DNA from: Klebsiella phage vB_KpM_FBKp34
Sequence record: MW394390.1
Length of the DNA: 64,000 nt
Strand: one strand, 5' to 3'
Part shown: piece after piece, positions 8,829-57,374 of the stretch
Layout: the number at the start of each line of letters is the position of its first letter
Numbering within the stretch: the first letter of the stretch is position 1
Program-made: the position numbers and the translations under genes
Notes under the pieces: model-generated
What the model saw: only the letters and a program-made list of their open reading frames with translations
Told to the model about the DNA's origin: nothing
The model's database searches: none

Positions 8829-8831
8829 TTA

Positions 8832-36066: not shown

Positions 36067-36141
36067 TGACCCCCGGAGGATTCGAACCTACCTGCCTCTC
36101 GATTATGAGTCGATTGCTCATACCTAATGAGCTTGAGGGCC
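36067..36141 (-). tRNA. tRNA with CAU anticodon (Met, fMet or Ile2)
   Basis: Acceptor GGCCCTC/GGGGGTC (two G.U pairs). Anticodon loop CUCAUAA. CCA not encoded. Confidence 0.55.
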
Positions 36142-36210
36142 ATTTCTTGTATCTCTTTGATGTACTTACTGTATCAAATCTTCTAGCATCTTGTCAACAA
36201 CAAATTTTAA

Positions 36211-40783: not shown

Positions 40784-40860
40784 TGGCAAACCCACTAGGA
40801 CTCGAACCTAGACTGTACGGTTTTGGAGACCGACATGCTGTCCAGTAACATTCTGGGAAT
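40784..40860 (-). tRNA. tRNA-Trp (CCA)-like, acceptor stem imperfect (possible pseudogene)
   Basis: Good T arm CTAGG/TTCGAGT/CCTAG and anticodon loop CUCCAAA. The acceptor ATTCCCA/TGGGTTT has two U.U mismatches. Confidence 0.35.
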
Positions 40861-40865
40861 ATTGT

Positions 40866-40941
40866 TGGTGGAACCCGATAGAATCGAACTATCTCCTAAT
40901 GCTCTTCAGGCATCCGCGCGAACCATCTACGCCAGAGTTCC
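40866..40941 (-). tRNA. tRNA-Phe (GAA)
   Basis: Acceptor GGAACTC/GGGTTCC. Anticodon loop CUGAAGA. T arm GATAG/TTCGATT/CTATC. CCA encoded. Confidence 0.7.
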
Positions 40942-40946
40942 TTTAT

Positions 40947-41021
40947 TGGCGGGCATACTTGGACTCGAACCAAGATCAAACGGTTAACAGCCGTCCGTAC
41001 TAACCTTTGTACTATACACCC
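40947..41021 (-). tRNA. tRNA-Asn (GUU)
   Basis: Anticodon loop CUGUUAA. D stem GTAC/GTAC. T arm CTTGG/TTCGAGT/CCAAG. Confidence 0.7.
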
Positions 41022-41216
41022 TTAAGTTTTACCATAATAGACAGAGATAGTTTTACCATTCTGATTCATTACGTATGCTACCTCATCTTCTTTAAGAAAG
41101 ATATTTTGATCTAGTCCAGAAATAGCAATACTCTTTTGTTTCGGGTTGAATCCGACACTATTGCCATCATGAATCTCTTCCCCACCTTCTGTCGAAATAA
41201 CTTTTACTGTTAACAT
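41022..41216 (-). CDS. hypothetical small protein
   Basis: AGGAG SD then ATG. Abuts the tRNA-Asn 5' end. Confidence 0.4.
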   Translation of the reverse strand: MLTVKVISTEGGEEIHDGNSVGFNPKQKSIAISGLDQNIFLKEDEVAYVMNQNGKTISVYYGKT

Positions 41217-41262
41217 TTGCTTCTCCTGTGGTTTGTCATCTCTGACTTTTAGTTATAAAAAT

Positions 41263-41340
41263 TGGTCTCCCCTACAGGATTCGAACCTGTGACCCGATGC
41301 ATCCAAAGCACCCACGCTGACCAGACTGCGCTAAGGAGAG
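41263..41340 (-). tRNA. tRNA-Pro (UGG)
   Basis: Anticodon loop UUUGGAU. T arm ACAGG/TTCGAAT/CCTGT. Confidence 0.7.
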
Positions 41341-41346
41341 ATAATT

Positions 41347-41421
41347 TGGAGGGTAGTAGTGGAATCTAACCACTCTAATACTGTTTTGCAGACAGATACA
41401 TGAACACTCTGACAACTACCC
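41347..41421 (-). tRNA. tRNA-Cys (GCA)
   Basis: Acceptor GGGTAGT/ACTACCC. Anticodon loop CUGCAAA. T arm AGTGG/TTAGATT/CCACT. The D arm is weak. Confidence 0.5.
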
Positions 41422-41427
41422 TTTAAT

Positions 41428-41504
41428 TGGTTGCGGCTATGGGTATTGCACCCATCTTACTCTAGTTTATGAGACTAGAAAGAACTCTCTGCCTCCCAAC
41501 CGCA
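41428..41504 (-). tRNA. second tRNA with CAU anticodon (Met, fMet or Ile2)
   Basis: Perfect anticodon stem CTAGT/CUCAUAA/ACTAG. The T loop TGCAATA is unusual. Confidence 0.5.
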
Positions 41505-41595
41505 ATAACTTAATACTTAATTATGGCGGGAACTTCATGCACTCCACCATGCGTTGGAAGCCAAGGAGTGTTCTCATGTAAGTATTCCCATGATT

Positions 41596-41671
41596 TGGTG
41601 CTACGGACTGGACTTGAACCAGTGACAACTCGATTATCGGTCGAGCATTCTACCAACTGAATTACCGAAGC
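41596..41671 (-). tRNA. tRNA-Ile (GAU)
   Basis: Anticodon arm CTCGA/CCGATAA/TCGAG. D arm ATTCAGTTGGTAGAAT. CCA encoded. Confidence 0.65.
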
Positions 41672-41677
41672 ATTGTT

Positions 41678-41763
41678 TGGCGGAAGATGCAAGGGTTGAA
41701 CTTGCACACCCTTTCGGATGGCGGTTTAGCAAACCGCTGTGGCTACCATTTCACCAATCTTCC
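41678..41763 (-). tRNA. tRNA-Ser (GCU), type II
   Basis: Acceptor GGAAGAT/ATCTTCC. Anticodon loop UUGCUAA. Long variable arm. Confidence 0.65.
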
Positions 41764-41843
41764 TAAATTTAAAGGCATTTAAGCCAGTTAATGTTTCCCT
41801 GGATTTATAGACACTGGTTCATTAACATCACACTCGTCTTATC

Positions 41844-41929
41844 TGGCGGTAGATTGAAGAGTCGAACTCCTGCCCTTTCGGACCCCTCCGGGTTCAAACC
41901 GGATTGCCAACCACTTAGCGGAACCTACC
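41844..41929 (-). tRNA. tRNA-Ser (UGA), type II
   Basis: Anticodon arm TCCGG/UUUGAAC/CCGGA. Long variable arm GGGGTCCGAAAGGGC. Confidence 0.65.
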
Positions 41930-41935
41930 TTTATT

Positions 41936-42013
41936 TGGTACATCTAGAGAGATTCGAACTCATCACTGACTGGAACCTAAATCCAGTGCCTCTACCAATT
42001 GGGCTATAGATGC
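41936..42013 (-). tRNA. tRNA with UAG anticodon (reads CUA; Leu-like) but class I architecture
   Basis: Perfect anticodon stem CTGGA/UUUAGGU/TCCAG. Short variable region. The T stem is weak. Confidence 0.45.
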
Positions 42014-42023
42014 ATTTATTATT

Positions 42024-42101
42024 TGGCGTTCTGTATGGTATTCGAACCCATAGAAATCCACCTTGAAAGGGTGGTGACTTTACCTGTTTGTCCAACAGAA
42101 C
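42024..42101 (-). tRNA. tRNA-Glu (UUC)
   Basis: Acceptor GTTCTGT/ACAGAAC. Anticodon arm CCACC/CUUUCAA/GGTGG. Confidence 0.6.
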
Positions 42102-42109
42102 ACAATTTT

Positions 42110-42223
42110 TGGCGGTGAATTCAGGAATCGAACCTGAGCCTACTCCATGACAAGGGAGATTGAATGCTGTAAAACTTCTCTAAGAAGTTATTTTTAGTTA
42201 TTCTACCACTAAACTAATTCACC
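42110..42223 (-). ncRNA. 114-nt tRNA-like gene with canonical acceptor, D and T arms and an internal ~38-nt insertion
   Basis: GGTGAAT TA GTTTAGTGGTAGAAT ... TCAGG TTCGATT CCTGA ATTCACC G CCA. The anticodon cannot be assigned. Confidence 0.4.
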
Positions 42224-42229
42224 TAAACT

Positions 42230-42306
42230 TGGCGCGTCCGACGGGTTACGATCCCGCATTCTCTCCCGTGACAGGGGAGTACCATTACCTAGCCAGCCCC
42301 AGACGC
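42230..42306 (-). tRNA. tRNA-Asp (GUC)
   Basis: Anticodon arm CTCCC/CUGUCAC/GGGAG. Acceptor GCGTCTG/CGGACGC. Confidence 0.65.
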
Positions 42307-42785: not shown

Positions 42786-44225
42786 TTAGAAATCATAACG
42801 TGGTACGTTAACTAACTTCTGCATAACTTTAACAGGTTCTAACTCACCTGTCAAGAGTCCTTTCATAATCGCTGGTGAAAATCCTGAAACCAATGCTGTA
42901 CCTTTCTGACCTACTTGAACTGGCACGTTGCCTCTCTGATGGGCTGCAAGATTCCAGAAAACAAGCTGAGGCATGGTATATCCAGACTGACTGTACATGA
43001 GAGCAATAGACTCAAAGTTTGTCATACCTGAAATAGCTTGGTTAAATTCCATATCAGAGAATACGATAACTTTACTAGGCATATCCCCTTGTGTCAAGTT
43101 GTGTTTCTTACCTAACTCAAGAATTCTTGCAAAAGCTTTCATAATATCAGTTGATCCATACTCAACATGTTCTTGTACCTTAGCAAGTTTCTGTGCAAGA
43201 GTCAAGGAACTTCCTACATCAATAAAATAAGGATTTGTTGAATACACCATCATCTGATCTTTAAAGATGCCTTTATTACGTTCAGCAATGTAAAGAGATA
43301 AAGCAATCCCTACATGAAGAGCATAAATATCACCAGAAACTTTTGCGTTATCAAAAGTCATTGAACCAGAAACATCAGATAAACAGATAATGTTTTCACT
43401 TGTACCTTCAGTATAATCTGGCAATGCTTTCCATTGGGCATTTGCTACTGACTTATCTCCGTGCATACAAGATTTTACAATATCATACGGATAAACAGCA
43501 CCTGCATTGATCTTAGCTTGTCCATCTTCTTTAATCAGGCTTTCACGATACTGTGCATAACGTTCACTGTCCACACGATTAAATAGTGCCTGATAACGTG
43601 CTGCTGCAAGTGATGGCAGCTTGCTATAATCAATAGCACCGTATTCTTTGCGAGAAAGACTCTGTTCCACAGTATTAGACAAAGAGGACAAGAGTTTATT
43701 ATATTCCTGATAACTCAGTTTCATAAATTTAGCAAGTACCTTTGCATTATTTTTATTTTTAACTGTGTTATTTCCACGCATACGTGGCATCCATTTTGCG
43801 CATAGTCCTGCGTTAGTCTTATCTGTTAAACAGTCAGCGATAAACTGCAAGGCTTCTTTTTCAACTGGTGTTCCAATAGCTTCAAGAACATCGTCCCAAC
43901 GACCAAGTTCTGGAATCTTAACTAACAAACGTGTTGCGAGTTTTGGATTCTGGTCACAAATGTTTTTAAATGTTTTTCTAAAAATATTTCTTTCACCCAT
44001 ACCTCCGCGAATATCTCGGGAGTACAGAAGAATACGTACAGCAGTTTCAGCATCTTCACTAAGAGCTTGCCAGAAAAGATCATCAGAAACAACATTCGGA
44101 TTCTTACGTAAAGTACCAATCTGGAAAAACAAATCCACATTTTTATTCAGTGAAGATTCATGAGTAACTGCACCATTAAGTGTCAGTTGGGACTTAGTAC
44201 GGGATGCATCAAACAGCTTAGACAT
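42786..44225 (-). CDS. vWA-domain protein with an N-terminal helical domain (DUF2828/TROVE-like?)
   Basis: MIDAS motif ICLSDVSGSMTF at about residue 283 of 479. Confidence 0.55.
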   Translation of the reverse strand: MSKLFDASRTKSQLTLNGAVTHESSLNKNVDLFFQIGTLRKNPNVVSDDLFWQALSEDAETAVRILLYSRDIRGGMGERNIFRKTFKNICDQNPKLATRLLVKIPELGRWDDVLEAIGTPVEKEALQFIADCLTDKTNAGLCAKWMPRMRGNNTVKNKNNAKVLAKFMKLSYQEYNKLLSSLSNTVEQSLSRKEYGAIDYSKLPSLAAARYQALFNRVDSERYAQYRESLIKEDGQAKINAGAVYPYDIVKSCMHGDKSVANAQWKALPDYTEGTSENIICLSDVSGSMTFDNAKVSGDIYALHVGIALSLYIAERNKGIFKDQMMVYSTNPYFIDVGSSLTLAQKLAKVQEHVEYGSTDIMKAFARILELGKKHNLTQGDMPSKVIVFSDMEFNQAISGMTNFESIALMYSQSGYTMPQLVFWNLAAHQRGNVPVQVGQKGTALVSGFSPAIMKGLLTGELEPVKVMQKLVNVPRYDF

Positions 44226-44307: not shown

Positions 44308-44550
44308 TTAATCAAAATCTTCAGATTTTATTCCATTTCCAGAAAAATCTAGTTCGCTTAAGTATTGATGTTCATATTCTCGATCTGAGTTTGAGTTATC
44401 AAAAGAGTATGAAGCACACCTGGAGCAGTATGGTGATTCATTTATACCATTTTTGACATTGTAGGAATTGTGGTTAAGAGGGGCATCACAGGCTTTACAT
44501 CTAAAATAAAAATTATAGGTTGGTTTATTATTGTTATTGGGTTTATCCAT
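44308..44550 (-). CDS. small zinc-ribbon protein
   Basis: CKAC...CSRC. Confidence 0.4.
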   Translation of the reverse strand: MDKPNNNNKPTYNFYFRCKACDAPLNHNSYNVKNGINESPYCSRCASYSFDNSNSDREYEHQYLSELDFSGNGIKSEDFD

Positions 44551-44623
44551 AAAATCTCACAAAAGTTATAGTTAATAGTTTGGTAATATTACTATACACC
44601 AGAGTGAGATTTTATGTCAAATC

Positions 44624-45478
44624 TTAGAAATTATCTATAACAGTTTCACCAGCTTCTAACCAAACTATCTTAAAAATTATACGGTTAGCATTACCTGATG
44701 TGTTAATTAAATTTACTTGAAAATTAGATCCTTTAGGGAAAATTTGATATCCTTGGTCTCTTGAGCTAGATGCTGAAGTCCTTTGTGACGGATTACTTCC
44801 GCTTGCTGGGATAAAAGATGGTATATCATATAAAGAACCTATTCCTGTAGGGTTCCCAGATAAAACATGAATACTCATTGTTGAATTTGAACCAAATCCT
44901 TGGTTACTTTTCACAGGGGTAATTAAAGAAGCATTAGTTTTTCCTGTACTACCTACATAAGTTCTTGCTTCAAACCCTGTATAAAAAGGTGTAAAATTGG
45001 TAGACACAATAGCGCACTCTTTGTCTGAAGGGACTATAAAATCAATCCATATGTTACCACCATTTGCAATGGTAAGATCCACTATTGCACTGTACAACCT
45101 ACCATCGATAGATGCTGCCTCTATTTGGGTTATTGTTTGTGTAAGTATTCTTGGTTCAATCAACCTTAAAAGTTTTCTAGAAGATGACCTCACATCTGAA
45201 GCCAAAACTTTATGTGCTGCTAATCTTCCCAAACCATAGGTTGAATCAGCTATAACAAAAACACCCTCCATTTGAGAGGGAACATAAAATTCTTCTTTTG
45301 AAGAAATTATATTAACTGTTGATTTATCAATATTTGTTACAGAACTCCCAAAATAAATCCTTATTGGAACTTCAGAGATATTTTCAAGAAGATAAGAAAA
45401 TTTAGAATCAAAACCAGATACAGTATAAAGATTAGTCCAAGTATCATTAGAAATATTTGGAGTGAGAACTCTATTCAT
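44624..45478 (-). CDS. hypothetical Ser/Thr/Asn-rich protein
   Basis: ORF. Confidence 0.4.
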   Translation of the reverse strand: MNRVLTPNISNDTWTNLYTVSGFDSKFSYLLENISEVPIRIYFGSSVTNIDKSTVNIISSKEEFYVPSQMEGVFVIADSTYGLGRLAAHKVLASDVRSSSRKLLRLIEPRILTQTITQIEAASIDGRLYSAIVDLTIANGGNIWIDFIVPSDKECAIVSTNFTPFYTGFEARTYVGSTGKTNASLITPVKSNQGFGSNSTMSIHVLSGNPTGIGSLYDIPSFIPASGSNPSQRTSASSSRDQGYQIFPKGSNFQVNLINTSGNANRIIFKIVWLEAGETVIDNF

Positions 45479-45567
45479 TTTATTTTCCTTATGTTTTATT
45501 TATATTTTAACATAAAGATTAAATATTTACCAGATAAATAAAAGCCCCAATTAAGGGGCTTAATTTT

Positions 45568-47253
45568 TTAAAGTTGTGACGCTGCTCGTTCACGAATCGT
45601 TGTCAGGTCTTCATCGACAATCAGCTTGCCGTTGTAGAACACACGACGCAACTCGTTATCGTCAGACTGTACATCTTCAAGCTGACAATTGTCAACCAGT
45701 TTCAGTTCGCCATTCTCATCACGAACAACCTTCAGGAAACCTTTTGCAGATTTCTTACCGAGGTCAGTCTTCGGTTCTTTGACAACCATGATCTGCTGAC
45801 CATCAATCACAGCGCCAGTTGCCTTAACAGCCATACCCAGTGAATCGCGGGTTGTGTACTGCGTGGTGAAAGAACCGACGCCGTAAACAATGTTGCTGGA
45901 TGCAAAACCTTTTTCTTTCAAACGTTCAAAGATGTCTTTTGCACGAGCAACAGTGATGGAGTCACCGTAAATCAGACCAACATGACTATCAAGAACTTTG
46001 TAACCTTTAGTGTTAAATTCACCACCGAAGATTTCCCACAGACACTGGATTGCACCTTTAACTTCATGCTCTTCAAGACCTGAAGGTTGGAAGTCGAAGT
46101 AGGCATTATTCTCATCGTCAACAAGAATCCGGTAGTATTTACCTTCAATCTTGGCAACTTCTGAATTTGAATCTTCCTGTAGTGCTGAGTGTGCATCAGA
46201 CCAGTCATCAAACTCACCGAGGCTACGATAGCCAGCAATGATATGCTCTGGAATACCAGAATCAGGACGGAATACTACACGACCATCACGGGCCATGATG
46301 TCCTGTTTCAGGATCGCTGCTGCTTTGGTGATAATCGCCCAAAAGTCATAACTGTCTGCCACGTAGGAAACAAAACCTTTAGGGAAAATTTCCGTAATGT
46401 AACGACGCAGGAACTCAACCTCAGCCAAGAAACGCGCTTCATCCAGAGTCAATTCAGGGTGTTCACCTTGTAAACGACCAACGATGAAACCGATGTTCGT
46501 TGTTGCAACAGAGTGTTCAGATGCAGGAATAGAACCAGCAACGAACTTGCCTTTCATGTTGTAATAACGATTTGCATACAGAATTGCTGGGATAGTATCA
46601 GTACCCATTGAGTTGATCAGTTGACCAAACTCACTCTGTGCTGCGTCGTGCGTCCCAGATTCACCACGATATGCGAAACAGTGGTTCTGGAAAGGCACAT
46701 GCAAGTTGTTATCGCAAGTCTCAGCAGCCCATTTTTCAGACAGCTTGCGATACTGCCAGAACGTAGTTGCAGTCGTAATAGTTTTCCAAGTTTCTGCGGA
46801 GATCACACTTTCCAGGAAGTTAGGCAACCAGTAAAAATCAGGATGCGTGTTCTGAATGGTGAACAGCGGAACCTGTACCGGAGACAGAGTACCTTCAGGA
46901 ATCGAACGGATTTCCAGTGGCAGATAACCAAGGTCATGCAGCTTTTCAAATCCCCAAGTTTCAACCATGTTAGGACCAATACTCAGATCACAAATTTCTT
47001 TGTACTGTTCAATAGCTTCTTCTTTACTTTTCTTGAAGAAGTTTTCGTTAAACATGTCGATAAGGAACCACTTAATGAATCCCTGAAGACCTGCCATCAT
47101 AACACGCTGGTCGTTATCAGCGAAGTGAATGAAGTGCTTCGCATTTCGTGGTGTCATGTTGTCCTGAACAATCTCAGAGCGTTTATCGTACATAGAAATG
47201 TGGCTTGGCTTATACCAATCCGCAAACATGATAGGGTTTTCTTTATACAGCAT
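45568..47253 (-). CDS. nadV: nicotinamide phosphoribosyltransferase (NAMPT/NadV)
   Basis: 561 aa. VFRPDSGIP and ADSYDFWAII match the NAMPT motifs (human VIRPDSGDP and SDSYD). Adjacent to prs. Confidence 0.8.
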   Translation of the reverse strand: MLYKENPIMFADWYKPSHISMYDKRSEIVQDNMTPRNAKHFIHFADNDQRVMMAGLQGFIKWFLIDMFNENFFKKSKEEAIEQYKEICDLSIGPNMVETWGFEKLHDLGYLPLEIRSIPEGTLSPVQVPLFTIQNTHPDFYWLPNFLESVISAETWKTITTATTFWQYRKLSEKWAAETCDNNLHVPFQNHCFAYRGESGTHDAAQSEFGQLINSMGTDTIPAILYANRYYNMKGKFVAGSIPASEHSVATTNIGFIVGRLQGEHPELTLDEARFLAEVEFLRRYITEIFPKGFVSYVADSYDFWAIITKAAAILKQDIMARDGRVVFRPDSGIPEHIIAGYRSLGEFDDWSDAHSALQEDSNSEVAKIEGKYYRILVDDENNAYFDFQPSGLEEHEVKGAIQCLWEIFGGEFNTKGYKVLDSHVGLIYGDSITVARAKDIFERLKEKGFASSNIVYGVGSFTTQYTTRDSLGMAVKATGAVIDGQQIMVVKEPKTDLGKKSAKGFLKVVRDENGELKLVDNCQLEDVQSDDNELRRVFYNGKLIVDEDLTTIRERAASQL

Positions 47254-47841
47254 CTTTTGTGTCTCCTTTGTGGTTTATTCTATAAAATATGCAATTTCTA
47301 TGAGAGTGTCTTTTACCTTTTACAACAGCACTAACTAAGCGATAGTCAAAGCCATAATCTCTCATCTCTTCATTGCCATTCATAATAGCAACTATTTCAT
47401 TTGTGTCAAGAGTTATTGCAAATATTGTGAAAGATAATCTTGTTGCCCTCCTCCCACTTGGCATATCCTTCAACCCATTGGCAAGTGCGTGAATTTGGTT
47501 AGTTTTGTTATCAACCCACTCAAGGTTTTCAACATTATTGTTTTGCTTGTTACCATCCTTGTGGTTGACTTGAGGAAGTCTTGTAGGATTAGGTATAAAT
47601 GCTTCTGCAACTACACGATGAACCTTGAGACTGACTTTCTTGCCACTTTTATCCTTCGTCCTAAGACGTAAATAACCACAATTATCTTCTTGAAATTTTA
47701 AAATCTTGCCTTTTACTTTACATAAGGTTCCTGTATCAGACCGTGCATAAACACGGTCAACAGAATAGATATTACCTTCGTTATCTACTTCAAGATATCC
47801 TTCAAAATCCTGAACGGATTTCTTTGAGAATTCCATGTTCA
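47243..47841 (-). CDS. HNH homing endonuclease (NUMOD4-HNH type)
   Basis: FEGYLEVDNEGNIYSV (NUMOD4). VNHKDGNKQNNNVENLEWV (HNH). Start reassigned to MNMEFS, which has a GGAGA SD. Overlaps the ends of both nadV and prs. Confidence 0.7.
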
Positions 47842-48647
47842 TTTCTCCCTGAAATATTTTCCATCCATGGATGGTAAGTGTAAACCTCATCAACAAACCC
47901 TTCGAGGATATCTATCCCTTTTGAGAAGATACCATGTGTAACGTATAAAATTACACGTTTTGCACCTTTTTGTTTAAGAACCTCCCCTAATTTAAGAAAG
48001 GTGAACGCACCATCGGCGATGTCATCTACGATGACACATTCTTTACCAGCCACATCCCCAAAAACCTCTGTCCCGAAAATTTCTCCTGTCGTTACATCAC
48101 GAACCTTACCAGCCTCCACCAGTGGAAGGCGCATACGATCTGCAACCTTTTGTGCTTTCTTCCTTGCACCAGCATCTGGTGCTACAATAATAACGTCTCC
48201 ACCATAAAGGTGGTCATGGAATTCTGAAATCAGTATATCTTGACCACGAACATGAACATTGTTTAGTAATGCTGTTGAAACATCACTATGTGGATCATCT
48301 ACCACAACTTTATCAAAACCAAGCGAGTTTACAATGTTTGCAAATACCTTAATGGCAAGAGCTTCACCAGGCTGCATCACACGATCCTGCCGAGCATAGG
48401 GGATGTAAGGCAGATTTAGAGTAAACTCTGCATGAACATCAAGATTCTCAAGCCGAGAAACTGCATCCACGAGTAAAGCCAATACCATAATATCCGCAGA
48501 ATTTTTAATCTTTGCTGTAATGTCAACAAAACCAATACTACCTTTCGGAGCATGGTTCAAGTCAATCTTCACTTGCTCCTCACCACCTTTGAACGTAAAG
48601 TGGTCTACAGGAACAATAAGTTTGTTCAGTCTAAGTTCAAGACTCAT
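47802..48647 (-). CDS. prs: ribose-phosphate pyrophosphokinase (PRPP synthetase)
   Basis: 281 aa. PRPP-binding loop CVIVDDIADGAFT. NLDVHAEF region. Confidence 0.8.
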   Translation of the reverse strand: MSLELRLNKLIVPVDHFTFKGGEEQVKIDLNHAPKGSIGFVDITAKIKNSADIMVLALLVDAVSRLENLDVHAEFTLNLPYIPYARQDRVMQPGEALAIKVFANIVNSLGFDKVVVDDPHSDVSTALLNNVHVRGQDILISEFHDHLYGGDVIIVAPDAGARKKAQKVADRMRLPLVEAGKVRDVTTGEIFGTEVFGDVAGKECVIVDDIADGAFTFLKLGEVLKQKGAKRVILYVTHGIFSKGIDILEGFVDEVYTYHPWMENISGRNEHGILKEIRSGF

Positions 48648-49027
48648 TTTAAATCTCCTCTATTAACTACTATGTAATGTCTTGGTTTTGCATGACCTGA
48701 TTGGTCTACAAAACCACTCTTGATTCTTTGTATATAACCATACTCTTCCATCCTTTTCAAGAACTCTGTTACTTTTGTTCTTGATTTTTCCCCAAATCCA
48801 AGTAATTCACACAATGTTTGTTGGGAAGGATAGAACACTTTAGTCAAATCTGCAAGCTTGTCTTTCTTCTTAGCCAAGTGACAAAAGTAGTCATATCTCC
48901 ACCATAATCTTATCAATCTTTGTAAATCACCACCAGACAACCTCTTATCGAAAACCCAGTAGACAGGGATAGAGACAAAAGAGTTCTCTTTTATTATAAT
49001 CTCATTGTCATCTAACCTTATTTTCAT
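48644..49027 (-). CDS. putative winged-helix DNA-binding protein
   Basis: SRTKVTEFLKRMEEYGYIQRIKSG resembles a wHTH. Lies next to the repeat-rich divergent control region. Confidence 0.35.
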   Translation of the reverse strand: MKIRLDDNEIIIKENSFVSIPVYWVFDKRLSGGDLQRLIRLWWRYDYFCHLAKKKDKLADLTKVFYPSQQTLCELLGFGEKSRTKVTEFLKRMEEYGYIQRIKSGFVDQSGHAKPRHYIVVNRGDLK

Positions 49028-49091
49028 CCAAGTTGCTCCTGCCTGTATCTCACTCTATAAGTTTTACCACTTCACAGTTTCAGTGTCAACA

Positions 49092-49136
49092 CCTAATTGT
49101 CCCTAAAAAGAGACATTCCTAATTGTCCCTAAAAAG
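49092..49136. repeat. tandem direct repeat CCTAATTGTCCCTAAAAAG x2
   Basis: Copies at 49092-49110 and 49118-49136. Confidence 0.6.
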
Positions 49137-49213
49137 GCACACAATACTAACTTATGATCTAGTTTATAGACTAACTTATGATTATATATTATTAATTATA
49201 AATAATTAATATG

Positions 49214-49258
49214 ATTTAGATCACATGTAAATTTATACAGTTGTTTTGTGATCTAAAT
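49214..49258. repeat. perfect 12-bp inverted repeat ATTTAGATCACA / TGTGATCTAAAT
   Basis: Arms at 49214-49225 and 49247-49258. A third GATCACAT lies at 49277-49284. Confidence 0.6.
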
Positions 49259-49305
49259 TTATGTTTTATCATCTTTTGATCACATAGTAAAGTTAAAAAA
49301 TAATC

Positions 49306-49334
49306 TTGACTTTAGTCTAATAGATAGTTAGTAT
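49306..49334 (+). promoter_or_regulatory. sigma70-like promoter of the plus-strand operon
   Basis: TTGACT, a 17-nt spacer, then TAGTAT. GAGG SD and ATG at 49366. Confidence 0.4.
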
Positions 49335-49365
49335 CTATACATAAATTAATAATTATGAGGTACTT

Positions 49366-49662
49366 ATGTCAGATTTTACTACAATCATGTCAGTGGTAGA
49401 TAAACCGAACAAGCGTATGCGTAAAGAGAAACCTACCACTGAAGAAGTCTTGTTCTTAGATCAGGTAAGAAGTGTAAGACTCTCTGTAATCCATGGTCAA
49501 CCTGTTGTAGTGGTAACGGAAACAGAAAGAAGTTTTGAAGATGTCTTCAAACAGTACACCAGTGTGATGAAACTTTATGACAAAAGAGGCTTGATCACAC
49601 TGAAGAGTCTTGATAAAGTTACAGCTTCAGATTTAGATAAAAATATTGTGGAGATCCATTAA
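49366..49662 (+). CDS. hypothetical protein
   Basis: ORF with an SD. Confidence 0.45.
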   Translation: MSDFTTIMSVVDKPNKRMRKEKPTTEEVLFLDQVRSVRLSVIHGQPVVVVTETERSFEDVFKQYTSVMKLYDKRGLITLKSLDKVTASDLDKNIVEIH

Positions 49663-50708
49663 TGACTATTGGTTTGATTTTTGGGAAGTTTGCACCTTTA
49701 CACTTAGGACACATCAACATGGTGATCAAAGCTTCTGCTTTGGTTGACACATTGCATGTGGTCTTAAGTTATGATCAAAAATTCAATGATACATTAGAAC
49801 CTAGTGTTAGTGAACCTTTAACCAAAGCCAACAGACATTTAGCTTTGATTGAAACCTTTAAAGATTTTAATAACATCATCGTCAGTGTCATTGATGAAAG
49901 TGCGGTTCCTGGTTATCCAGAAGGTGAAGTAATGTTCACTAATATGCTGAAGAAAAAGACTAGAACTCTACACTTCGATAAAGTATTTACAAGTGAACCT
50001 AGTTATGATAAGTATCTTAAAGATAATTTTCCAGACTCTGAGCACATCGTTGTAGATGCTAACCGTGATGAAGTAAATATCAGTGCAACAATGATCAGAA
50101 ATAATCCCTATAAGTATTGGGATTTTATTGCTCCAGCCATGAGAAAACACTATGTGAAAAAAGTTTGTATCATTGGTGTAGAGTCTACTGGCAAATCAAC
50201 ACTAGTTAAAAAGCTCTCTAAAGCTCTACAGACGCTTTTTGTAGAAGAGGTAGGTCGAACTATCTGTGAGCAAGAATATGGCCTCACAGAGGCTTACATG
50301 AAGCCTGAAGACTATGTATACGTTGCTATGAAGCATAAGATGAAAGAAAAGGAACTTTTGCCATATGCAAACAAGATTTTGTTGAGTGATACAAATGCAG
50401 TTGTGACAGACTTTTCTATGAATACATTTAACAACTTGGAGCACTACTCCCCACTGTTGTCAGAGATCTGTTTTGCTGAGAAATATGATCTTGTCTTGTA
50501 CTTACGTAATGACATCCCTTGGGTAGATGACCCTTTACGTAAAAAATCAACACAAGATGACAGAGAAAAATCACAAAAGGTTCTTGACAATTTTGTATAC
50601 AACGTTTATAAAGTTTATGAGAAGTGTCCAGTTATCCAAATTGGTGGGACTTACGAAAACCGCTTCAATGAAGCAATGAAAGAAATTAAAAAACTTCTAG
50701 CAAGTTAA
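49662..50708 (+). CDS. NadR-like bifunctional NMN adenylyltransferase / ribosylnicotinamide kinase
   Basis: N-terminal FGKFAPLHLGHI (the HxGH nucleotidyltransferase motif). A second domain carries the Walker A GVESTGKST. Confidence 0.7.
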   Translation: MTIGLIFGKFAPLHLGHINMVIKASALVDTLHVVLSYDQKFNDTLEPSVSEPLTKANRHLALIETFKDFNNIIVSVIDESAVPGYPEGEVMFTNMLKKKTRTLHFDKVFTSEPSYDKYLKDNFPDSEHIVVDANRDEVNISATMIRNNPYKYWDFIAPAMRKHYVKKVCIIGVESTGKSTLVKKLSKALQTLFVEEVGRTICEQEYGLTEAYMKPEDYVYVAMKHKMKEKELLPYANKILLSDTNAVVTDFSMNTFNNLEHYSPLLSEICFAEKYDLVLYLRNDIPWVDDPLRKKSTQDDREKSQKVLDNFVYNVYKVYEKCPVIQIGGTYENRFNEAMKEIKKLLAS

Positions 50709-50722
50709 AAACAGGAGTCTTT

Positions 50723-50908
50723 ATGAAAATAGGTGATATGGTACGTTGTACTCACAGTGCAGATAATGATTTTACTGTAGGTAAGCTTTACATTATTGAT
50801 GCTTTTGATGGAGATGGTGATCCTATTCTAGTTGATAACGATGGATATATAGGTAACATTGGAGTGATTATGAATGGCTATCTTTACCAGTTTGAGGAGG
50901 TAAAATGA
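50723..50908 (+). CDS. hypothetical small protein
   Basis: ORF. Confidence 0.4.
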   Translation: MKIGDMVRCTHSADNDFTVGKLYIIDAFDGDGDPILVDNDGYIGNIGVIMNGYLYQFEEVK

Positions 50909-51603
50909 ATATTTATCTTAAAACAACTTTGACTGATTTTTATGGTTGGTCTAAGTTAGAATATCTTTGGCTTTTTGTTTGTTCCGTAACTATTGCAGCA
51001 ACATCAGTTATTATGGGTGCAACTCTCGTTGAATTTGTTTCATCTGTTACAGGGATCATTGGTGCGATCCTTGTTGCTAAAGGGAAACTCTCAAGTTACT
51101 ACTGGGGATTTGTTGCAACAGCATTGTATGCATATATCTCATTCACATACAAAATGTATGGTGAAACAATTATGTATACTGTATTGTTTACACCTTTACA
51201 GTTGATTGGTGGTATTCTTTGGTCTCAAAAGTTAAAGCTTTCTGAAGATGGACAGAAGGCGGATGTTGTTAAGAAATGGTTAACAACTCAACAACGTCTC
51301 ATTGTTACTGTTGGTACACTAATCGTTATTGCAGCCTATGCTTATGGTGTTTCCTTGTTGAAGGGATATTCTCCTGGTTTAGATTCTGCGACAGCAATTC
51401 TCTCTGTGCTAGCTACAGTGTTAATGGTACTACGTTACTCTGAACAATGGTATGTTTGGGTAATTGTTAACATTGTTGCCGTTGTTCTTTGGATTCAGGC
51501 TACAATGCATCATGAGGGTGGAGGAGCAGTCGTGTTAGTAATGTGGGTTGCTTACCTCTTAAACTCAGTGTATGGTGTATATCAGTGGCGTAAAATTGCT
51601 TAA
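50905..51603 (+). CDS. PnuC-like nicotinamide riboside transporter (inferred)
   Basis: 232 aa with about 7 TM helices, immediately after the NadR-like gene. Confidence 0.5.
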   Translation: MNIYLKTTLTDFYGWSKLEYLWLFVCSVTIAATSVIMGATLVEFVSSVTGIIGAILVAKGKLSSYYWGFVATALYAYISFTYKMYGETIMYTVLFTPLQLIGGILWSQKLKLSEDGQKADVVKKWLTTQQRLIVTVGTLIVIAAYAYGVSLLKGYSPGLDSATAILSVLATVLMVLRYSEQWYVWVIVNIVAVVLWIQATMHHEGGGAVVLVMWVAYLLNSVYGVYQWRKIA

Positions 51604-52231: not shown

Positions 52232-52521
52232 AGAAAGAGAAATTTGATACTTCTGCTTTCGTGTTTGAGACTGATCTATCTGCTCTTGAAGAAAAGCTTC
52301 TGGCCTGTTATGCTGAGTTAGAGGATCTTCTTGAGTACCAACAACCTGATTCTGAACAAAGAAAAAGGATTGAGGAACTCAAGTATTGGCTTGGTTGGTA
52401 TGAGTTAAATTTACCAGAGGCTAAAAGGAGAAATTTAAAATTTATCTTAACTTGTGCAATAGAAAATAGAGTTTTAGGATTATATGAAAAGAAAAAAAGT
52501 TTTCGGAGTAGGAGTAAATGA
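52207..52521 (+). CDS. hypothetical protein
   Basis: ORF. Confidence 0.4.
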   Translation: MGTTGKTIKKEKFDTSAFVFETDLSALEEKLLACYAELEDLLEYQQPDSEQRKRIEELKYWLGWYELNLPEAKRRNLKFILTCAIENRVLGLYEKKKSFRSRSK

Positions 52522-53119
52522 CTCAAAGATTCCTGTTAGTTGGTGGGAGGATAGAGGAGAAAAAAGAGTTAGAATTTTATGCCCTTATTATGTAAAATGG
52601 ACAGACATGTTGAGACGATGTTATAGTGAAAAACAAAATCTTATGTCTCCTTGGTATGACTCTAAAGTTCATAATGAATGGCATATTTTTAGCAACTTCA
52701 AATCTTGGATGGAAAAACAAGATTGGGAAGGAAAACACCTAGATAAAGATATACTTGGAGATAAAAGTTTATATAGCAAAGATACTTGTGTATTTGTTCC
52801 ATATTATGTAAATAATGTTTTTCAAAATCACCAAGATTGTTCTTACTGTACATACCATAAACGTGACAATAAATATCAAAGTTCAATAAATTGGGATGGA
52901 AGAGTTAAACATATTGGTTATTTTGACAGTAAAGTAGAGGCACAATATGAATATTTTAAAGTTAAAATATTATACATATCTGGTAAAATTAAAAGGTATT
53001 TTTCAGAAAACTATGATTCTAGGGTTATGTTGAAATTAATAATGTTATACAATAACTTAGTTGAAACATTTCAAGCTTTAAAAGTAAAATTAATAGAGTT
53101 AAAAGGAGATTTAAAATGA
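52484..53119 (+). CDS. homing-endonuclease-like protein with an AP2-type domain (paralog of 2973..3671)
   Basis: Shares the CPYYVKW...LRRCYS...LDKDILG...[11 protein letters not shown] block. AP2-like [27 protein letters not shown]. Confidence 0.5.
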
Positions 53120-53961: not shown

Positions 53962-54519
53962 ATGTATGTGACTTCAGACCTGCATTTTATGCATAGGAGG
54001 GTTTCTGAATTTTGTCCTGCTTATAGAAAATGGAATTATCTTCATGATATGACAGAAGGACTTATTTTAGCTTGGAATGAAAAAGCTAAAACACCAGGGA
54101 CAAAAATGTATCATCTCGGCGATTTCTGCTTTGGGACACCAGAAGAAACAGATCTCATAGCTTCCCGTCTGAATGGTGATATTACATTTATTGTTGGCAA
54201 CCATGATTACTCAAAACACCGAGAAGTGCTTGAGAAGTATGGTGAAGTGAAGTATTACGATGAAGTTAAATATGGTAAGAAATTCTTTGTCCTTTGTCAC
54301 TATCCTATTGCATCTTGGAATAAACAAGGAAGAGGTTCAATTATGCTTCATGGGCATAGTCATGGAAGTTTTCCTGATGAAATGTATGGAAAGATGTTAG
54401 ATGTCGGTTGGGATGCACAAGGGAAGATCTTGCATTTTGATGAAATCATTGCTAAGATGGAGCGTCGTGAAGTAAAAGTAATTGACCACCACAAAAATTT
54501 TGGTTTAGATAATGAATAA
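53962..54519 (+). CDS. calcineurin-like metallophosphoesterase (lambda phosphatase-like)
   Basis: VTSDLHFMH, HLGDFCFG, FIVGNHDY and HGHSH motifs. Confidence 0.65.
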   Translation: MYVTSDLHFMHRRVSEFCPAYRKWNYLHDMTEGLILAWNEKAKTPGTKMYHLGDFCFGTPEETDLIASRLNGDITFIVGNHDYSKHREVLEKYGEVKYYDEVKYGKKFFVLCHYPIASWNKQGRGSIMLHGHSHGSFPDEMYGKMLDVGWDAQGKILHFDEIIAKMERREVKVIDHHKNFGLDNE

Positions 54520-54709
54520 AGACATTGATCTTATTGAGAATGTAATATTTCTTCTGAGTGAACTTGAAGATTATGTTGACAACCTAGATATGAGCGAATA
54601 TGATGACTTCAATGAGATGAAGGAAGCACAAAAAGAAGTTCTTAAACTTTTGAAGAATCTTACACGAAGGAGAGAAAATGAAGTTCAACGTAGACGACTT
54701 AGTTGCTAA
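54512..54709 (+). CDS. hypothetical small acidic protein
   Basis: ORF. Confidence 0.35.
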   Translation: MNKDIDLIENVIFLLSELEDYVDNLDMSEYDDFNEMKEAQKEVLKLLKNLTRRRENEVQRRRLSC

Positions 54710-55598
54710 AAATCTGGTGACTAAAAAGACTTACACCGAAGGCCCGTTCGCTGGTCTTTCTGTGCTCAAATATAAGAACAATGTGTTCTGGGACAACCTG
54801 TGGCATACAGACTCACGTCTGCTTGAGTGTCGTGGTATGGTTGTTGATGCAGAAGACAACGTTATTATCTGGCCTTTTACGAAGATTTTTAACCGTTTCG
54901 AGAATGGAACAGACTTACCACTCGATCAGCAGGTTGTTTGCATTCGTAAAGTCAACGGATTTATGGCAACTGCTGCGGTACGTGGTGAAAAACTTCTTGT
55001 ATCAACGACAGGAACCTTGGATTCTGAGTTCTCTGATCTGGCACGGAAATATCTTGAAAAGATGAAATTAGATCTTGTTGCATTTCCAGAGGACTATACT
55101 TTCATCTTTGAAATTTGTGACAGTAGCGACCCTCACATTGTTGAGGAGGAAGAGGGTGCATATTTGATTGGTATGCGAGACTTAGCCTTAAATGGGACAA
55201 TGCTTGAAGAATATCGTCTTGATCGCATAGCTGAAGTGATCGGAGCAAAGCGTCCTGAATGGCATAATATGTTCTTCAGTGATGTGATCAAGTACTCCAA
55301 GGCTGTAACTCACGAAGGTTTTGTTATCCGTAATGTCGGAACAGATAACGAAAACAGCGAACTGCTTCTTAAAATAAAGTCACCACATTACTTGACGAAG
55401 AAGTTCCTGATGCGAGGTGGACAGAACAAGTGGGACATGATCTGGGACAATCCAAAAGAAGCTAAAAAGCGTATTGATGAAGAATATTATAACCTTATTG
55501 ATTATTTACGCTGGGCCTTTGAAAAAGAGGAATGGGCAGTTAAAGATGCTCAATATCGTCGTAAATGGATCGAGGCTTATTTTGAGGAGAAATGCTAA
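54678..55598 (+). CDS. ligase-family covalent nucleotidyltransferase, probably an RNA ligase
   Basis: Motif I-like RKVNGF. Motif IV HEGFVIR. Motif V LLKIKSPHY. A separate canonical DNA ligase lies at 58009. Confidence 0.5.
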   Translation: MKFNVDDLVAKNLVTKKTYTEGPFAGLSVLKYKNNVFWDNLWHTDSRLLECRGMVVDAEDNVIIWPFTKIFNRFENGTDLPLDQQVVCIRKVNGFMATAAVRGEKLLVSTTGTLDSEFSDLARKYLEKMKLDLVAFPEDYTFIFEICDSSDPHIVEEEEGAYLIGMRDLALNGTMLEEYRLDRIAEVIGAKRPEWHNMFFSDVIKYSKAVTHEGFVIRNVGTDNENSELLLKIKSPHYLTKKFLMRGGQNKWDMIWDNPKEAKKRIDEEYYNLIDYLRWAFEKEEWAVKDAQYRRKWIEAYFEEKC

Positions 55599-55942
55599 TG
55601 ATCGTATGGCTTGATGACTTAAGAGATCCAAAAGACTACGGTTATCCTGATGCATTGTGGTTTAAGACCTCTCAGAAGTTTATGGATTTTCTTGATAATC
55701 GGTCAAAGTTCTATCGTTATGTCACAGAGTGGCATTTCGATAATGACCTCGGAGAAGATTCAGAAATGGAGGGCTATGACTGCCTGTTAGCCTTGGAAGA
55801 GAAGCTTGTGTATGGGAAACTTCCTGTGCATGATGCTAAACTCTATGTCCACACATCTAACCCTTCTGCGGCAAAAAAGTTCATGCTTGCAAAAGAGAGC
55901 TTCTTGAAGTATCGTATCACGATCTTAAGAAACAATTACTGA
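55592..55942 (+). CDS. hypothetical protein
   Basis: ORF. Confidence 0.4.
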   Translation: MLMIVWLDDLRDPKDYGYPDALWFKTSQKFMDFLDNRSKFYRYVTEWHFDNDLGEDSEMEGYDCLLALEEKLVYGKLPVHDAKLYVHTSNPSAAKKFMLAKESFLKYRITILRNNY

Positions 55943-55951
55943 GGAGAAGAG

Positions 55952-56377
55952 ATGGAAAAGACTCTGATTATCTTGCGTGGTGTGTCTGGTGCTGGTAAGT
56001 CTACAGTAGCAGAAATGTTATCAGATGGCGTATGGCCTATCTGTGAAGCAGATAAATTTCACTACACGGAAGAGGGTGTTTACGACTGGAAACCTGAAAA
56101 TATCCAGGCAGCGCATAAATGGTGTCAAAATCAAGTAAGAGGTTACATGGAAGACAGCTTCCATGGTTTAGGTAACTGGGTAAAAATAATTGTATCTAAC
56201 ACTACAACTACTGAAAAAGAACTTAAACCATATATTGACTTAGCTGAAGAGTATGGGTATAAAGTTGTTAGTTTGGTTGTTGAAAATAGACATGGAAATG
56301 ATTCTATTCATAACGTCCCACAGGAAATCCGTGATACTCAAGAGAGACGTCTTAGAAACTCATTAAAATTACAGTAG
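55952..56377 (+). CDS. P-loop kinase (polynucleotide kinase-like)
   Basis: Walker A ILRGVSGAGKST in a 141-aa protein. Confidence 0.5.
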   Translation: MEKTLIILRGVSGAGKSTVAEMLSDGVWPICEADKFHYTEEGVYDWKPENIQAAHKWCQNQVRGYMEDSFHGLGNWVKIIVSNTTTTEKELKPYIDLAEEYGYKVVSLVVENRHGNDSIHNVPQEIRDTQERRLRNSLKLQ

Positions 56378-56385
56378 GATAAATT

Positions 56386-56598
56386 ATGAAACATATTTTA
56401 ATAGTACTATTATTCTTATCTTATTCAGTTTTTGCAAATGAGAATAAGAAGGATGTATTTTTGTTTACACCTAAAACTGATGAGATCTTCGAAGTCAAAA
56501 CTAATGATGGAAAACAATTGTGGTGTTATGTCTCCGATAAATTAATAACGAGATTAACTATAAAGTGCTTTGATAAAAATTTTGATAAGGAGAAATAA
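56386..56598 (+). CDS. small secreted protein (signal peptide)
   Basis: MKHILIVLLFLSYSVFA. Confidence 0.4.
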   Translation: MKHILIVLLFLSYSVFANENKKDVFLFTPKTDEIFEVKTNDGKQLWCYVSDKLITRLTIKCFDKNFDKEK

Positions 56599-57374
56599 TG
56601 AGACGTCTTATAGTAATAAGTGGGGCGGGCTTCTCTGCGGAGAGCGGTGTACGTACATTCCGCACAGATACTGAATCTGGGAAAGCTTTATGGGATGAAT
56701 ATGACCTTGAGGAGGTTTGTAACATACACGCCTTCCGTGGTAACTTCTACCATAAAACACACATGTTTTATAACAAGCGTCGTGCAGAGTTACCAACGGT
56801 ACACCCGAATGCTGCACATCTTCGTGTTGCTGAATGGTACAAACGTTATCCTGGACAAGTTATCAACATGACGACTAACGTCGATGATTTGTTGGAACGT
56901 GCAGGTGTACCGAAAGAAGATACTCTGTACATTCATGGATACCTGAAAGAAATTCGTTATCAGATGCATGAGGATTCTGAAGAAGAATTGGTGGATATTG
57001 GTTATGCACAAATTGATCCTGATGATTATTATTGGTGCAAACCAAACGTAGTATTTTTTGGGGAGAATGCTCCGGCCTATGCTGCTATGTATGACACCTT
57101 GGAGTCATTGACAAATCAGGATCTTGTAATTGTTGTAGGCTGTTCAAATACAGTTATTAACTTCAACTGGGAACTTTTCCCTGCTTCAAGGATTGGTACT
57201 AAGGTTGTTGTAGTCAATCCAAATGTTCGGTATGATGAGCAGTTGATGTACGAAGATGCTGGTGTTATAGTTTATCGGACTGGAGCAGTGGATGCCTTTA
57301 GTAACTTAGATCTGATTAAAATGGTTGAAGACCATCTCGAAGGTAAAACTGGGCTTCAAAAATTAGGAAAATGA
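56598..57374 (+). CDS. Sir2-family (sirtuin-like) NAD-dependent protein
   Basis: GAGFSAESGVRTFR (sirtuin GAGISxxSGIPxFR motif). Catalytic IHG. VVFFGE. VVGCSNTV. The zinc-binding cysteines are mostly absent. Confidence 0.7.
   Translation: MRRLIVISGAGFSAESGVRTFRTDTESGKALWDEYDLEEVCNIHAFRGNFYHKTHMFYNKRRAELPTVHPNAAHLRVAEWYKRYPGQVINMTTNVDDLLERAGVPKEDTLYIHGYLKEIRYQMHEDSEEELVDIGYAQIDPDDYYWCKPNVVFFGENAPAYAAMYDTLESLTNQDLVIVVGCSNTVINFNWELFPASRIGTKVVVVNPNVRYDEQLMYEDAGVIVYRTGAVDAFSNLDLIKMVEDHLEGKTGLQKLGK

Follow-up and report, generated by a model that had tools for sequence, protein, structure and literature searches.

Probable NARP1-type and NARP3-type NAD+ reconstitution modules lie back to back in Klebsiella phage vB_KpM_FBKp34

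Nicotinamide adenine dinucleotide (NAD+) depletion is among the commonest strategies by which bacteria resist phages, and the reconstitution of NAD+ by the phage is a recently recognised counter to it. The locus described here occupies positions 45568-51603 of a 64,000-nucleotide stretch of DNA, referred to below as the window, from Klebsiella phage vB_KpM_FBKp34 (MW394390.1). In all likelihood it represents two independent and already described NAD+ reconstitution modules, NARP1 and NARP3, arranged back to back and read in divergent directions. The component parts are all known, and the unusual aspect of the locus is the tight pairing of the two modules. The enzyme activities, the transport function and the anti-defence role assigned to it below are those of homologues characterised by others, and are to be read as predictions.

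The pathway closest to the leftward half of the locus was elucidated by Osterman et al. From Pfam assignments, the Prs of the phage operon was initially expected to form phosphoribosyl pyrophosphate (PRPP) and its Nampt to form nicotinamide mononucleotide (NMN), an expectation that was refuted for that operon. Instead, Adps uses ADP-ribose (ADPR) and ATP to form ADPR-pyrophosphate (ADPR-PP), and Namat turns ADPR-PP and nicotinamide directly into NAD+, the pair constituting NARP1. Because the NARP1 of phage Bas63 overcomes SIR2-HerA in a host that lacks both pncC and nadR, NARP1 needs no NMN adenylyltransferase. The same authors found that the Namat gene adjoins 97% of genes of the Adps clade; that true Nampts form a separate clade, found in phages without Adps but with Nmnat (NARP2); and that no phage carries both NARP1 and NARP2. 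Deletion of NARP1 has its phenotypes specifically on hosts carrying SIR2-HerA or DSR2. A structural study of Namat (PMC12774641) defined a 'selectivity clamp' with SCH and SCL parts, and showed that Namat retains PRPP-dependent NMN synthesis in vitro, with about half of the activity of human Nampt. The stacking residue of the SCL part is either an Arg at position 3, or a Lys or Tyr followed by a stacking residue.

The counterpart of the rightward half was predicted by Osterman et al. (2024), who proposed the phage NadR-PnuC operon as a further reconstitution pathway, and was demonstrated for Bas30_86/87 and named NARP3 in a Science Advances paper of August 2026. In NARP3, PnuC imports nicotinamide riboside (NR), and a NadR enzyme without a helix-turn-helix (HTH) domain phosphorylates and adenylates it to NAD+; Bas30_86/87 defeat Sir2-HerA and DSR1. 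Co-occurrence with NARP1 is not discussed in that paper. The GenBank record of phage KVP40 annotates nadV, nadR and pnuC, and Iyer et al. (2022) pointed out that a phage genome may encode NadR together with NadV. A literature search found no paper naming all four genes in phages, and looser searches reached the relevant work. An initial annotation of this DNA had called the combination of NadR and PnuC less commonly described in phages; given these reports, and homologues of the two proteins in 491 and 388 phage-collection records respectively (against 2046 for Namat/Nampt and 1573 for Adps), that statement is out of date.

The assignment of the leftward half begins with the 281-aa product of the open reading frame (ORF) at 47802-48647 on the minus strand, called prs in relatives. 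It contains the Pfam domains Pribosyltran_N, Pribosyltran and Pribosyl_synth, which correspond to a PRPS-like two-domain fold, and it passes the generic model TIGR01251 (154 bits, cutoff 113). The curated NCBIfam equivalog and subfamily models for Prs nevertheless fail on it, the equivalogs scoring 81-133 bits against cutoffs of 296-536. Its identity is 43% to the Adps of ICP1 (164 bits), 41% to that of Bas63 (144 bits) and 39% to that of Nernie (182 bits), against 31% (97 bits) to Escherichia coli Prs. A search of the PDB for a solved Adps structure gave canonical PRPS entries only, so functional residues were located by way of an alignment to the ICP1 gene, using the published ICP1 numbering. 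The Adps hairpin reads KVRDVTTGEI, of the form K[VI]R[DN]xxTGxI that contains the catalytic Lys, where Prs has KRRPRANVSQ. The pyrophosphate (PP) loop is DDIADGAFTF, which shares DDI[AC]DG, or in longer form DDI.DG..TF, with Adps proteins, where Prs has DDMIDTGGTL; the Prs ribose-5-phosphate loop DDMIDTGGT is not present, and DDIADGAFT stands at that site. The hairpin Lys and the acceptor residues are all kept (K181, R86, H120, D158, D208, D209 and D212, equivalent to ICP1 K185, R87, H121, D161, D212, D213 and D216), and the adenine contact F18 of ICP1 is F19. The C-terminal regulatory helices alpha11-alpha12 of Prs are missing: the protein has 281 aa against 315 aa, and the alignment stops before the C-terminal helices of the E. 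coli enzyme. Gene linkage was examined in viral loci, for which counts here and below are among the matches listed, 60-80 per search. A Namat gene lies within 10 kb of the Adps homologue in 79 of 80 such loci, with a median gap of 221 bp; in the window, adps and namat are on the same strand, 548 bp apart, with an inserted HNH gene occupying the gap. Judged by its sequence, the 281-aa protein is Adps-like, a predicted ADP-ribose pyrophosphokinase, and not a canonical Prs.

Its partner, the 561-aa product of 45568-47253 (minus strand; called nadV or Nampt in relatives), belongs to the NAPRTase family (PF04095, E=1e-26; PRK09198, 480 bits against a cutoff of 405). When the PDB was searched with phmmer, the best match was the Namat of SPbetaL1 (9w5x, 418 bits), far ahead of Xanthomonas Nampt (180) and human NAMPT (162), and the identity of the protein to Namats is 40-49%, against 29% to the Nampt of KVP40. 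Residues 460-470 form the SCH clamp motif GSFTTQYTTRD, including F462 and Y466, which fits the published definition of the selectivity clamp (PMC12774641). The Namats of Bas63, ICP1 and Nernie have GSYTYQ[YF].T[RC]D at this site, and KVP40 Nampt has GGGLLQQLDRD. In an alignment of 94 viral homologues, the form GS plus an aromatic residue is found in nearly all of the 82 that are linked to Adps; in the nine Adps-less homologues positions 2-3 are invariably GG, within GG[AG]LLQ in eight cases, and KVP40 Nampt shares the GG. Position 5 of the motif is Thr in the window protein, where Tyr or Phe is more usual, and Thr recurs in eight other Adps-linked homologues. The Adps-linked group has a median identity of 45% to the window protein, the Adps-less group one of 30%. 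Seventeen of 21 residues that contact ligand in the SPbetaL1 enzyme are identical, F462, Y466, T468, R469 and D470 among them. The catalytic core shared with Nampt is likewise kept (D12, Y14, F193, R196, D219, A244, H247, R329, D331, G430, D431, G460, S461 and R469), a set that takes in the catalytic His as well as the residues contacting nicotinamide and ribose-phosphate. The 561-aa protein is accordingly classed as Namat-like, that is, as a putative nicotinamide ADP-ribose transferase rather than a PRPP-preferring Nampt.

Sequence, motifs and gene linkage thus assign the Prs-like/Nampt-like pair to NARP1, with activities predicted from its homologues. Adps would move pyrophosphate from ATP onto ADPR to give ADPR-PP, and Namat would couple ADPR-PP with nicotinamide to give NAD+. 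The starting materials, ADPR and nicotinamide, would be the leftovers of the SIR2, TIR, DSR and SEFIR NADases.

On the plus strand, the ORF at 49662-50708 encodes a 348-aa NadR-like protein with a CTP_transf_like domain (residues 6-147) followed by an AAA_28 domain (residues 167-334). It passes the NadR model PRK08099 (226 bits, cutoff 201), and since the match begins only at model position 65, the HTH domain is absent. Its best solved homologue is 9x6f (212 bits), whose printed aligned sequence matches Bas30_86, and it is 38% identical to Bas30_86. The motifs GKFAPLHLGH and ISATMIR and the Walker A motif GVESTGKST are intact. Of the residues to which mutagenesis or structure gives a function in Bas30_86, 14 of 16 are identical (K9, F10, S36, E79, P83, G88, F109, S111, V138, I140, K162, K167, E229 and D276); one of the substitutions is R167, which is Lys here. 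The protein is predicted to be a bifunctional NMN adenylyltransferase (NMNAT) and ribosylnicotinamide kinase.

The gene for the PnuC-family protein, of 232 aa, lies at 50905-51603 on the same strand; its start is 197 bp beyond the nadR-like stop codon, and between the two genes comes a 61-aa ORF. The protein matches NMN_transporter (PF04973, E=2e-38; 132.7 bits, cutoff 27.3) and the PnuC equivalog TIGR01528 (117 bits, cutoff 42.45), and a hydropathy scan gave 7-8 hydrophobic segments. It is 35% identical to Bas30_87, and its Q99 and N189 correspond to the NR-binding Q94 and N180 of that protein; it is a predicted NR transporter. PnuC lies within 10 kb of NadR, usually adjacent, in 52 of the 80 viral NadR loci. 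By sequence, the two proteins form a NARP3-type module, in which PnuC would bring in NR, and the HTH-less NadR-like enzyme would first phosphorylate it to NMN with its kinase domain and then, with its adenylyltransferase domain, join NMN and ATP into NAD+.

On this interpretation, each of the two modules would supply NAD+ upon its depletion by host NADase defences. Part of the initial annotation survives. The four genes it had named (nadV, prs, NadR-like and PnuC-like) were recovered within 6 kb at exactly the positions it gave, and the profile searches it proposed all returned matches (NAPRTase, PRPP-synthetase domains, CTP_transf_like plus AAA_28, NMN_transporter/PnuC). Its view of the locus as phage NAD+ reconstitution of the kind that counters NAD+-depleting defences agrees with the matches to the NARP1 and NARP3 families, and its uptake and conversion branch for NR with the likeness to Bas30_86/87. 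What is not borne out, besides the supposed rarity of NadR with PnuC, is the route from nicotinamide through NMN to NAD+ by way of Prs and Nampt: in motifs, identities and linkage, that pair matches Adps and Namat.

Several features sit less comfortably with two intact modules of these types. In Namat, the SCL stacking position is Lys39-His40, compared with Arg in SPbetaL1 and Lys-Trp in Bas63: K39 aligns with R40 of SPbetaL1 and is followed by H40-F41, in a loop that is five residues longer. The Lys plus its next residue resembles the corresponding arrangement in Bas63 Namat. Because Namat still makes NMN from PRPP in vitro, part of the flux may pass by way of NMN to the NMNAT of the phage. 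In Adps, the adenine contact F92 of ICP1 is Met91, as it also is in the genetically validated Adps of Bas63, and DDIADGAFTF departs from the family consensus DDICDGGRTF in a way that is rare among the 80 viral homologues, with Ala in place of ICP1 Cys215 and Phe at position 219 (the ICP1 loop being C215-S220). In the NadR-like enzyme, D115 of Bas30_86 is Ser; in PnuC, the NR-binding N45 of Bas30_87 is G50, Gly being found here also in the PnuC of E. coli and KVP40. The HNH insertion separates adps from namat, alters the C-terminus of Adps and could be polar on namat expression. Finally, a scan for sigma-70-like promoters was not above chance, with 23 sites against 22.1 expected, and because the count is so close to expectation no promoter claim is rested on it.

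Relatives of the NadR-like protein in viral contigs (IMG/VR) were found by an alignment-based search; a single-protein search of viral contigs found none. The large myoviruses PVP-SE1, 4MG, KPP-1, AV124 and SSE121-like phages recur in the match lists of all four proteins, and at least eight IMG/VR contigs appear in both the NadR and the Adps match lists, with the modules about 55 kb apart. From this recurrence, co-occurrence of NARP1 and NARP3 at the level of the genome is common in the PVP-SE1-like lineage. Close proximity is another matter: just two of the 80 NadR-centred loci have Adps and Namat within 10 kb of NadR, and none of the 80 Adps-centred loci has NadR or PnuC within 10 kb of Adps. 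The presence of all four genes within 6 kb is thus a rare arrangement, shared at the DNA level, among the matches listed, by Klebsiella phage KP13-16 only.

The two exceptions among the NadR-centred loci, L061 and L062, are near-identical and come from an unrelated viral contig (L062 being IMG/VR 3300022654_000549), where positions 3137-11026 hold an NAD+ island on one strand, in the order Adps, AAA ATPase, Namat, unknown ORF, HAD_SAK_2, unknown ORF, Macro, NadE (NAD synthase), PnuC and NadR. This is an independent aggregation of NAD+ genes, combining NARP1 (possibly in a phosphatase-extended form), NARP3 and NadE. In four other IMG/VR contigs (L076, L078, L082 and L084), a Nampt-type enzyme with GG[AG]LLQ and no Adps lies a few kb from NadR-like and PnuC genes. 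By its sequence features, it is in contigs of this kind, and not in the window, that the route from nicotinamide through NMN to NAD+ put forward in the initial annotation is found.

A more ambitious interpretation, possible but on present evidence doubtful, is that the back-to-back modules form a co-regulated NAD+ island whose parts cooperate. NARP1 would mend N-glycosidic cleavage of NAD+, from which ADPR and nicotinamide arise. The adenylyltransferase of the NadR-like enzyme would re-ligate NMN released by pyrophosphate-cleaving NADases such as MisA of Metis, whose products are NMN and AMP and which NARP1 is unable to counter. PnuC and the kinase domain would import NR from outside where the breakdown products are unusable, as with aRES, whose product is ADP-ribose 1-phosphate (ADPR-1P). 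Residual Nampt activity of Namat, feeding the phage NMNAT, would add a bypass resembling NARP2. Selection for NAD+ islands would fit with the unrelated contig L062, in which Adps, Namat, Macro, NadE, PnuC and NadR have come together independently on one strand.

One alternative to two independent modules takes the family names at face value: the Prs-like enzyme would make PRPP, the Nampt-like enzyme would make NMN, and the NMNAT domain of the NadR-like enzyme would complete NAD+, giving a salvage pathway like NARP2 with NR uptake added. The Pfam and NCBIfam names are indeed Prs and NAPRTase, an NMNAT domain is encoded 2.4 kb away, Namat keeps a PRPP-to-NMN activity in vitro that is about half that of human Nampt (PMC12774641), and loci that combine a Nampt-type enzyme with NadR and PnuC are real, in L076, L078, L082 and L084 and in KVP40. 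This alternative appears improbable all the same. The mark of NARP2, an enzyme of the PRPP-preferring Nampt clade unlinked to Adps, was sought and not found in the window, where a Namat-type clamp motif, rather than the motif of Adps-less homologues, occurs beside an Adps neighbour. The 29% identity to KVP40 Nampt compares poorly with 40-49% to Namats, and the Prs-like protein, with its Adps hairpin and Adps-like PP loop, falls below all Prs equivalog cutoffs. The NARP1 of Bas63 works without pncC and nadR, and no phage with both NARP1 and NARP2 was found (Osterman et al.).

It might also be supposed that the genes are general metabolic boosters, raising NAD+ to serve replication and the NAD+-consuming enzymes that the phage itself encodes, regardless of any host NADase defence. 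A protein of the SIR2 family (sirtuin/CobB-like) is encoded 5 kb downstream, at 56598-57374, and the KVP40 pathway raises NAD+ even where no defence system is present (Osterman et al.). As an alternative to counter-defence this is hardly probable: NARP1 consumes the products of NADases, and its deletion phenotypes are specific to SIR2-HerA or DSR2 hosts; the phenotypes of NARP3 were likewise shown on Sir2-HerA and DSR1 hosts; and the phage DNA ligase in the window is ATP-dependent, not NAD-dependent. The two roles are in any case not mutually exclusive.

For the gene between adps and namat (47243-47896, minus strand), an accessory role in NARP1 like that of Adpp (a Macro phosphatase) or of RyDEP was considered and ruled out: the gene encodes a homing endonuclease (HNH_3, E=4e-9; NUMOD4, E=4e-5). 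Its likely start is the ATG at 47842, with a GGGAG Shine-Dalgarno motif ahead of it. The gene is absent from KP13-16 (OP617741, Stephanstirmvirinae), to which 45568-51603 has 94.9% nucleotide identity, and the inserted DNA extends from about 47272 to 47856, replacing the adps stop codon and so adding some 15 residues to Adps. HNH homologues lie directly after adps in two other viral loci (L102 and L106). The comparison with KP13-16 is uneven across the region: identity is 99-100% at 48557-49856 and 46536-47135, but within 47136-48556 it is 63-78% over the 700 bp of adps beside the insertion and 80-86% on the namat side. At the protein level NadR and PnuC are 98% and Namat 96% identical, compared with only 80% for Adps, because the affected tract covers adps. 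From the sequence, this looks like co-conversion of flanking DNA during homing, of which such a drop in identity is typical, with a divergent adps allele imported together with the endonuclease gene.

That one or both modules are decaying passengers, NARP1 having been inactivated by the HNH insertion and the imported adps allele, is very improbable even given the altered Adps C-terminus, the rare PP loop variant and the frequency of nonsense-mutated Namat in isolates of ICP1, because every ORF is intact and preceded by a Shine-Dalgarno motif, Adps keeps all of its catalytic and acceptor residues and Namat its catalytic core, adps and namat ORFs are still detected in other phages with HNH homologues at the same position, and a near-consensus promoter-like site lies about 130 bp upstream of namat. 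That site, at 47409-47382, consists of TTGACA, a 16-nt spacer with TG, and TATTAT, and is a pattern match only. The same holds for a terminator-like GC-rich hairpin at 45542-45561 (minus strand), which a consensus scan placed just past the namat stop, with T-rich tails on both strands.

The two operons of the locus diverge from an AT-rich intergenic region of 338 bp (49028-49365; 26% GC). The initial annotation had placed the genes on either side of a divergent promoter region, and the split is confirmed; the layout is conserved in KP13-16, with only three differences in 401 nt making this region nearly invariant. It contains direct repeats in three pairs (24, 13 and 12 nt) together with an inverted repeat that is perfect over 12 nt, ATTTAGATCACA / TGTGATCTAAAT; these are candidate operator sites. 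Promoter-like hexamers also occur on both strands, in a number not above chance. Co-regulation of both operons from this shared region may be surmised. A Shine-Dalgarno-like motif is found ahead of every gene of the locus. Besides the HNH gene, three small ORFs lie in the interval that had not been mentioned in the initial annotation. The leftward operon, in the order orf127, adps, HNH and namat, is headed by orf127 (127 aa; 48644-49027, minus strand), which overlaps the adps start by 4 nt. Its product is weakly winged-helix/HTH-like (HTH_36, below cutoff, E=9e-4), matches phrog_8453 of unknown function (E=1e-46), and has weak similarity to replication-initiator/DnaD-like winged-helix proteins; homologues stand directly upstream of adps in seven Adps-centred viral loci. 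The rightward operon, in the order orf98, nadR-like, orf61 and pnuC, is headed by orf98 (98 aa; 49366-49662, plus strand), the end of which overlaps the nadR-like start codon. It matches phrog_4868, also of unknown function (E=7e-18), and is conserved in KP13-16; in the other viral loci examined it is not generally linked to NadR. The third, orf61 (61 aa; 50723-50908, plus strand), has weak PHROG matches only, and its region is 70-76% identical to KP13-16, where a 102-aa ORF is annotated instead.

Beyond namat, an 80-aa Cys-rich ORF with a CxxC...CxxC arrangement (orf80; 44308-44550, minus strand) has homologues just after namat in nine moderately diverged Adps-centred viral loci and in KP13-16. 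It is possibly a conserved NARP1 accessory, or possibly a mere syntenic neighbour in this phage group. Between it and namat the window has an additional ORF of 284 aa (44624-45478), for which Pfam gave nothing and PHROG only a weak hit of unknown function; this ORF may be cargo acquired at the border of the NARP1 module. On the other side of the locus, a second HNH gene (52484-53119) matches phrog_953 (E=1e-54), and identity to KP13-16 is 58% in the 100 bp before it.

Further out, shortly upstream of the locus, 17 tRNA genes form two minus-strand arrays (34756-36142 and 40784-42306); tRNA arrays also neighbour the NARP1 pair in phage Nernie and the NARP3 pair in Bas30. Between the nearer array and the locus, 42786-44225 encodes a 479-aa protein with DUF2828 and DUF7788 (vWA-like). 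Downstream, 53962-57374 holds an RNA-repair-like cluster on the plus strand, which comprises a calcineurin-like phosphoesterase, an RNA ligase of the T4 Rnl1 type, a cREC_REC cyclic-phosphate-processing domain and an AAA_33 kinase, and is followed by the SIR2-family protein, an NAD+-consuming phage enzyme close to the NAD+ genes, which scores below all curated cutoffs. The metallophosphoesterase at 53962-54519 was considered as a relative of the 'phage phosphatases' that counter aRES and was rejected, those phosphatases being Macro-domain proteins. Neither the genes of the locus nor the SIR2 protein had a meaningful PADLOC match. At 8001-12000 the GC content is 0.46-0.49, against about 0.35 in the rest of the window, near a change of sign in GC skew.

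The locus brings no new enzyme class. Its interest is that one lineage of phages infecting Klebsiella, a target host for phage therapy, would carry two mechanistically distinct reconstitution pathways side by side, and so offers a convenient natural system in which to ask whether NARP1 and NARP3 are redundant, additive or complementary, and whether the pair covers NADases that evade NARP1, such as those of aRES and Metis. It is also a cautionary case for annotation: because the labels 'prs' and 'nadV' in phages usually stand for Adps and Namat, reconstructions of pathways from such labels give the wrong chemistry.

Set beside the described NARP1 modules of Bas63, SPbetaL1, Fado, DyoEdafos and ICP1 (where the genes are NrsAB), the leftward half has the same gene order, with a Prs-like gene ahead of a Nampt-like one on a single strand, the SCH motif of Namat, the hairpin Lys of Adps, a PP loop resembling the Adps type, and the loss of the C-terminal regulatory helices of Prs; its proteins are 38-49% identical to the characterised members. 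(Bas63, MZ501086, is a Felixounavirus and not a relative of the present phage; MZ501111 is Bas51.) It differs in that the pair is split by a homing endonuclease gene, in the PP loop variant and the Lys-His at the SCL stacking position, in the absence of a Macro (Adpp) or RyDEP accessory gene at the locus, and in directly adjoining a NARP3 module. Like the NARP3 of Bas30 (TrudiRoth), the rightward half has the gene of an HTH-less NMNAT and ribosylnicotinamide kinase enzyme ahead of pnuC on one strand; the enzyme keeps 14 of 16 functional residues and the transporter two of three NR-binding residues. This half differs in having the 61-aa ORF between the pair and the 98-aa ORF ahead of it, in the Gly that replaces N45 of the transporter, and in its setting, an approximately 137-kb phage resembling KP13-16 (Stephanstirmvirinae), whereas Bas30 is a T5-like siphovirus.

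KVP40, the prototype of NARP2 with NadV, an Nmnat annotated nadR, and PnuC, likewise has a Nampt-family enzyme, an NMN adenylyltransferase and PnuC in one genome. Its NadV, however, is a true Nampt that prefers PRPP, with the motif GGGLLQQLDRD and no Adps partner; NadV, Nmnat and PnuC are 29%, 24% and 24% identical to the window proteins; and the genes are dispersed over 25 kb. The PVP-SE1-like myoviruses have all four homologues per genome, with identities to the window of 75-77% for Adps, 69-74% for PnuC, about 40% for NadR and, at the nucleotide level, 81-88% for Namat, but their two modules are about 55 kb apart, with about 0.5-2 kb of other genes between NadR and PnuC. The closest counterpart is KP13-16, whose genes 00020-00027 show the identical divergent four-gene layout around a near-identical intergenic region. 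There, adps and namat are 210 bp apart with a 50-aa ORF alone between them, and three segments of the window are missing, namely 44623-45535 with the 284-aa ORF, 47272-47856 with the HNH gene and 52496-53113 with the second HNH gene.

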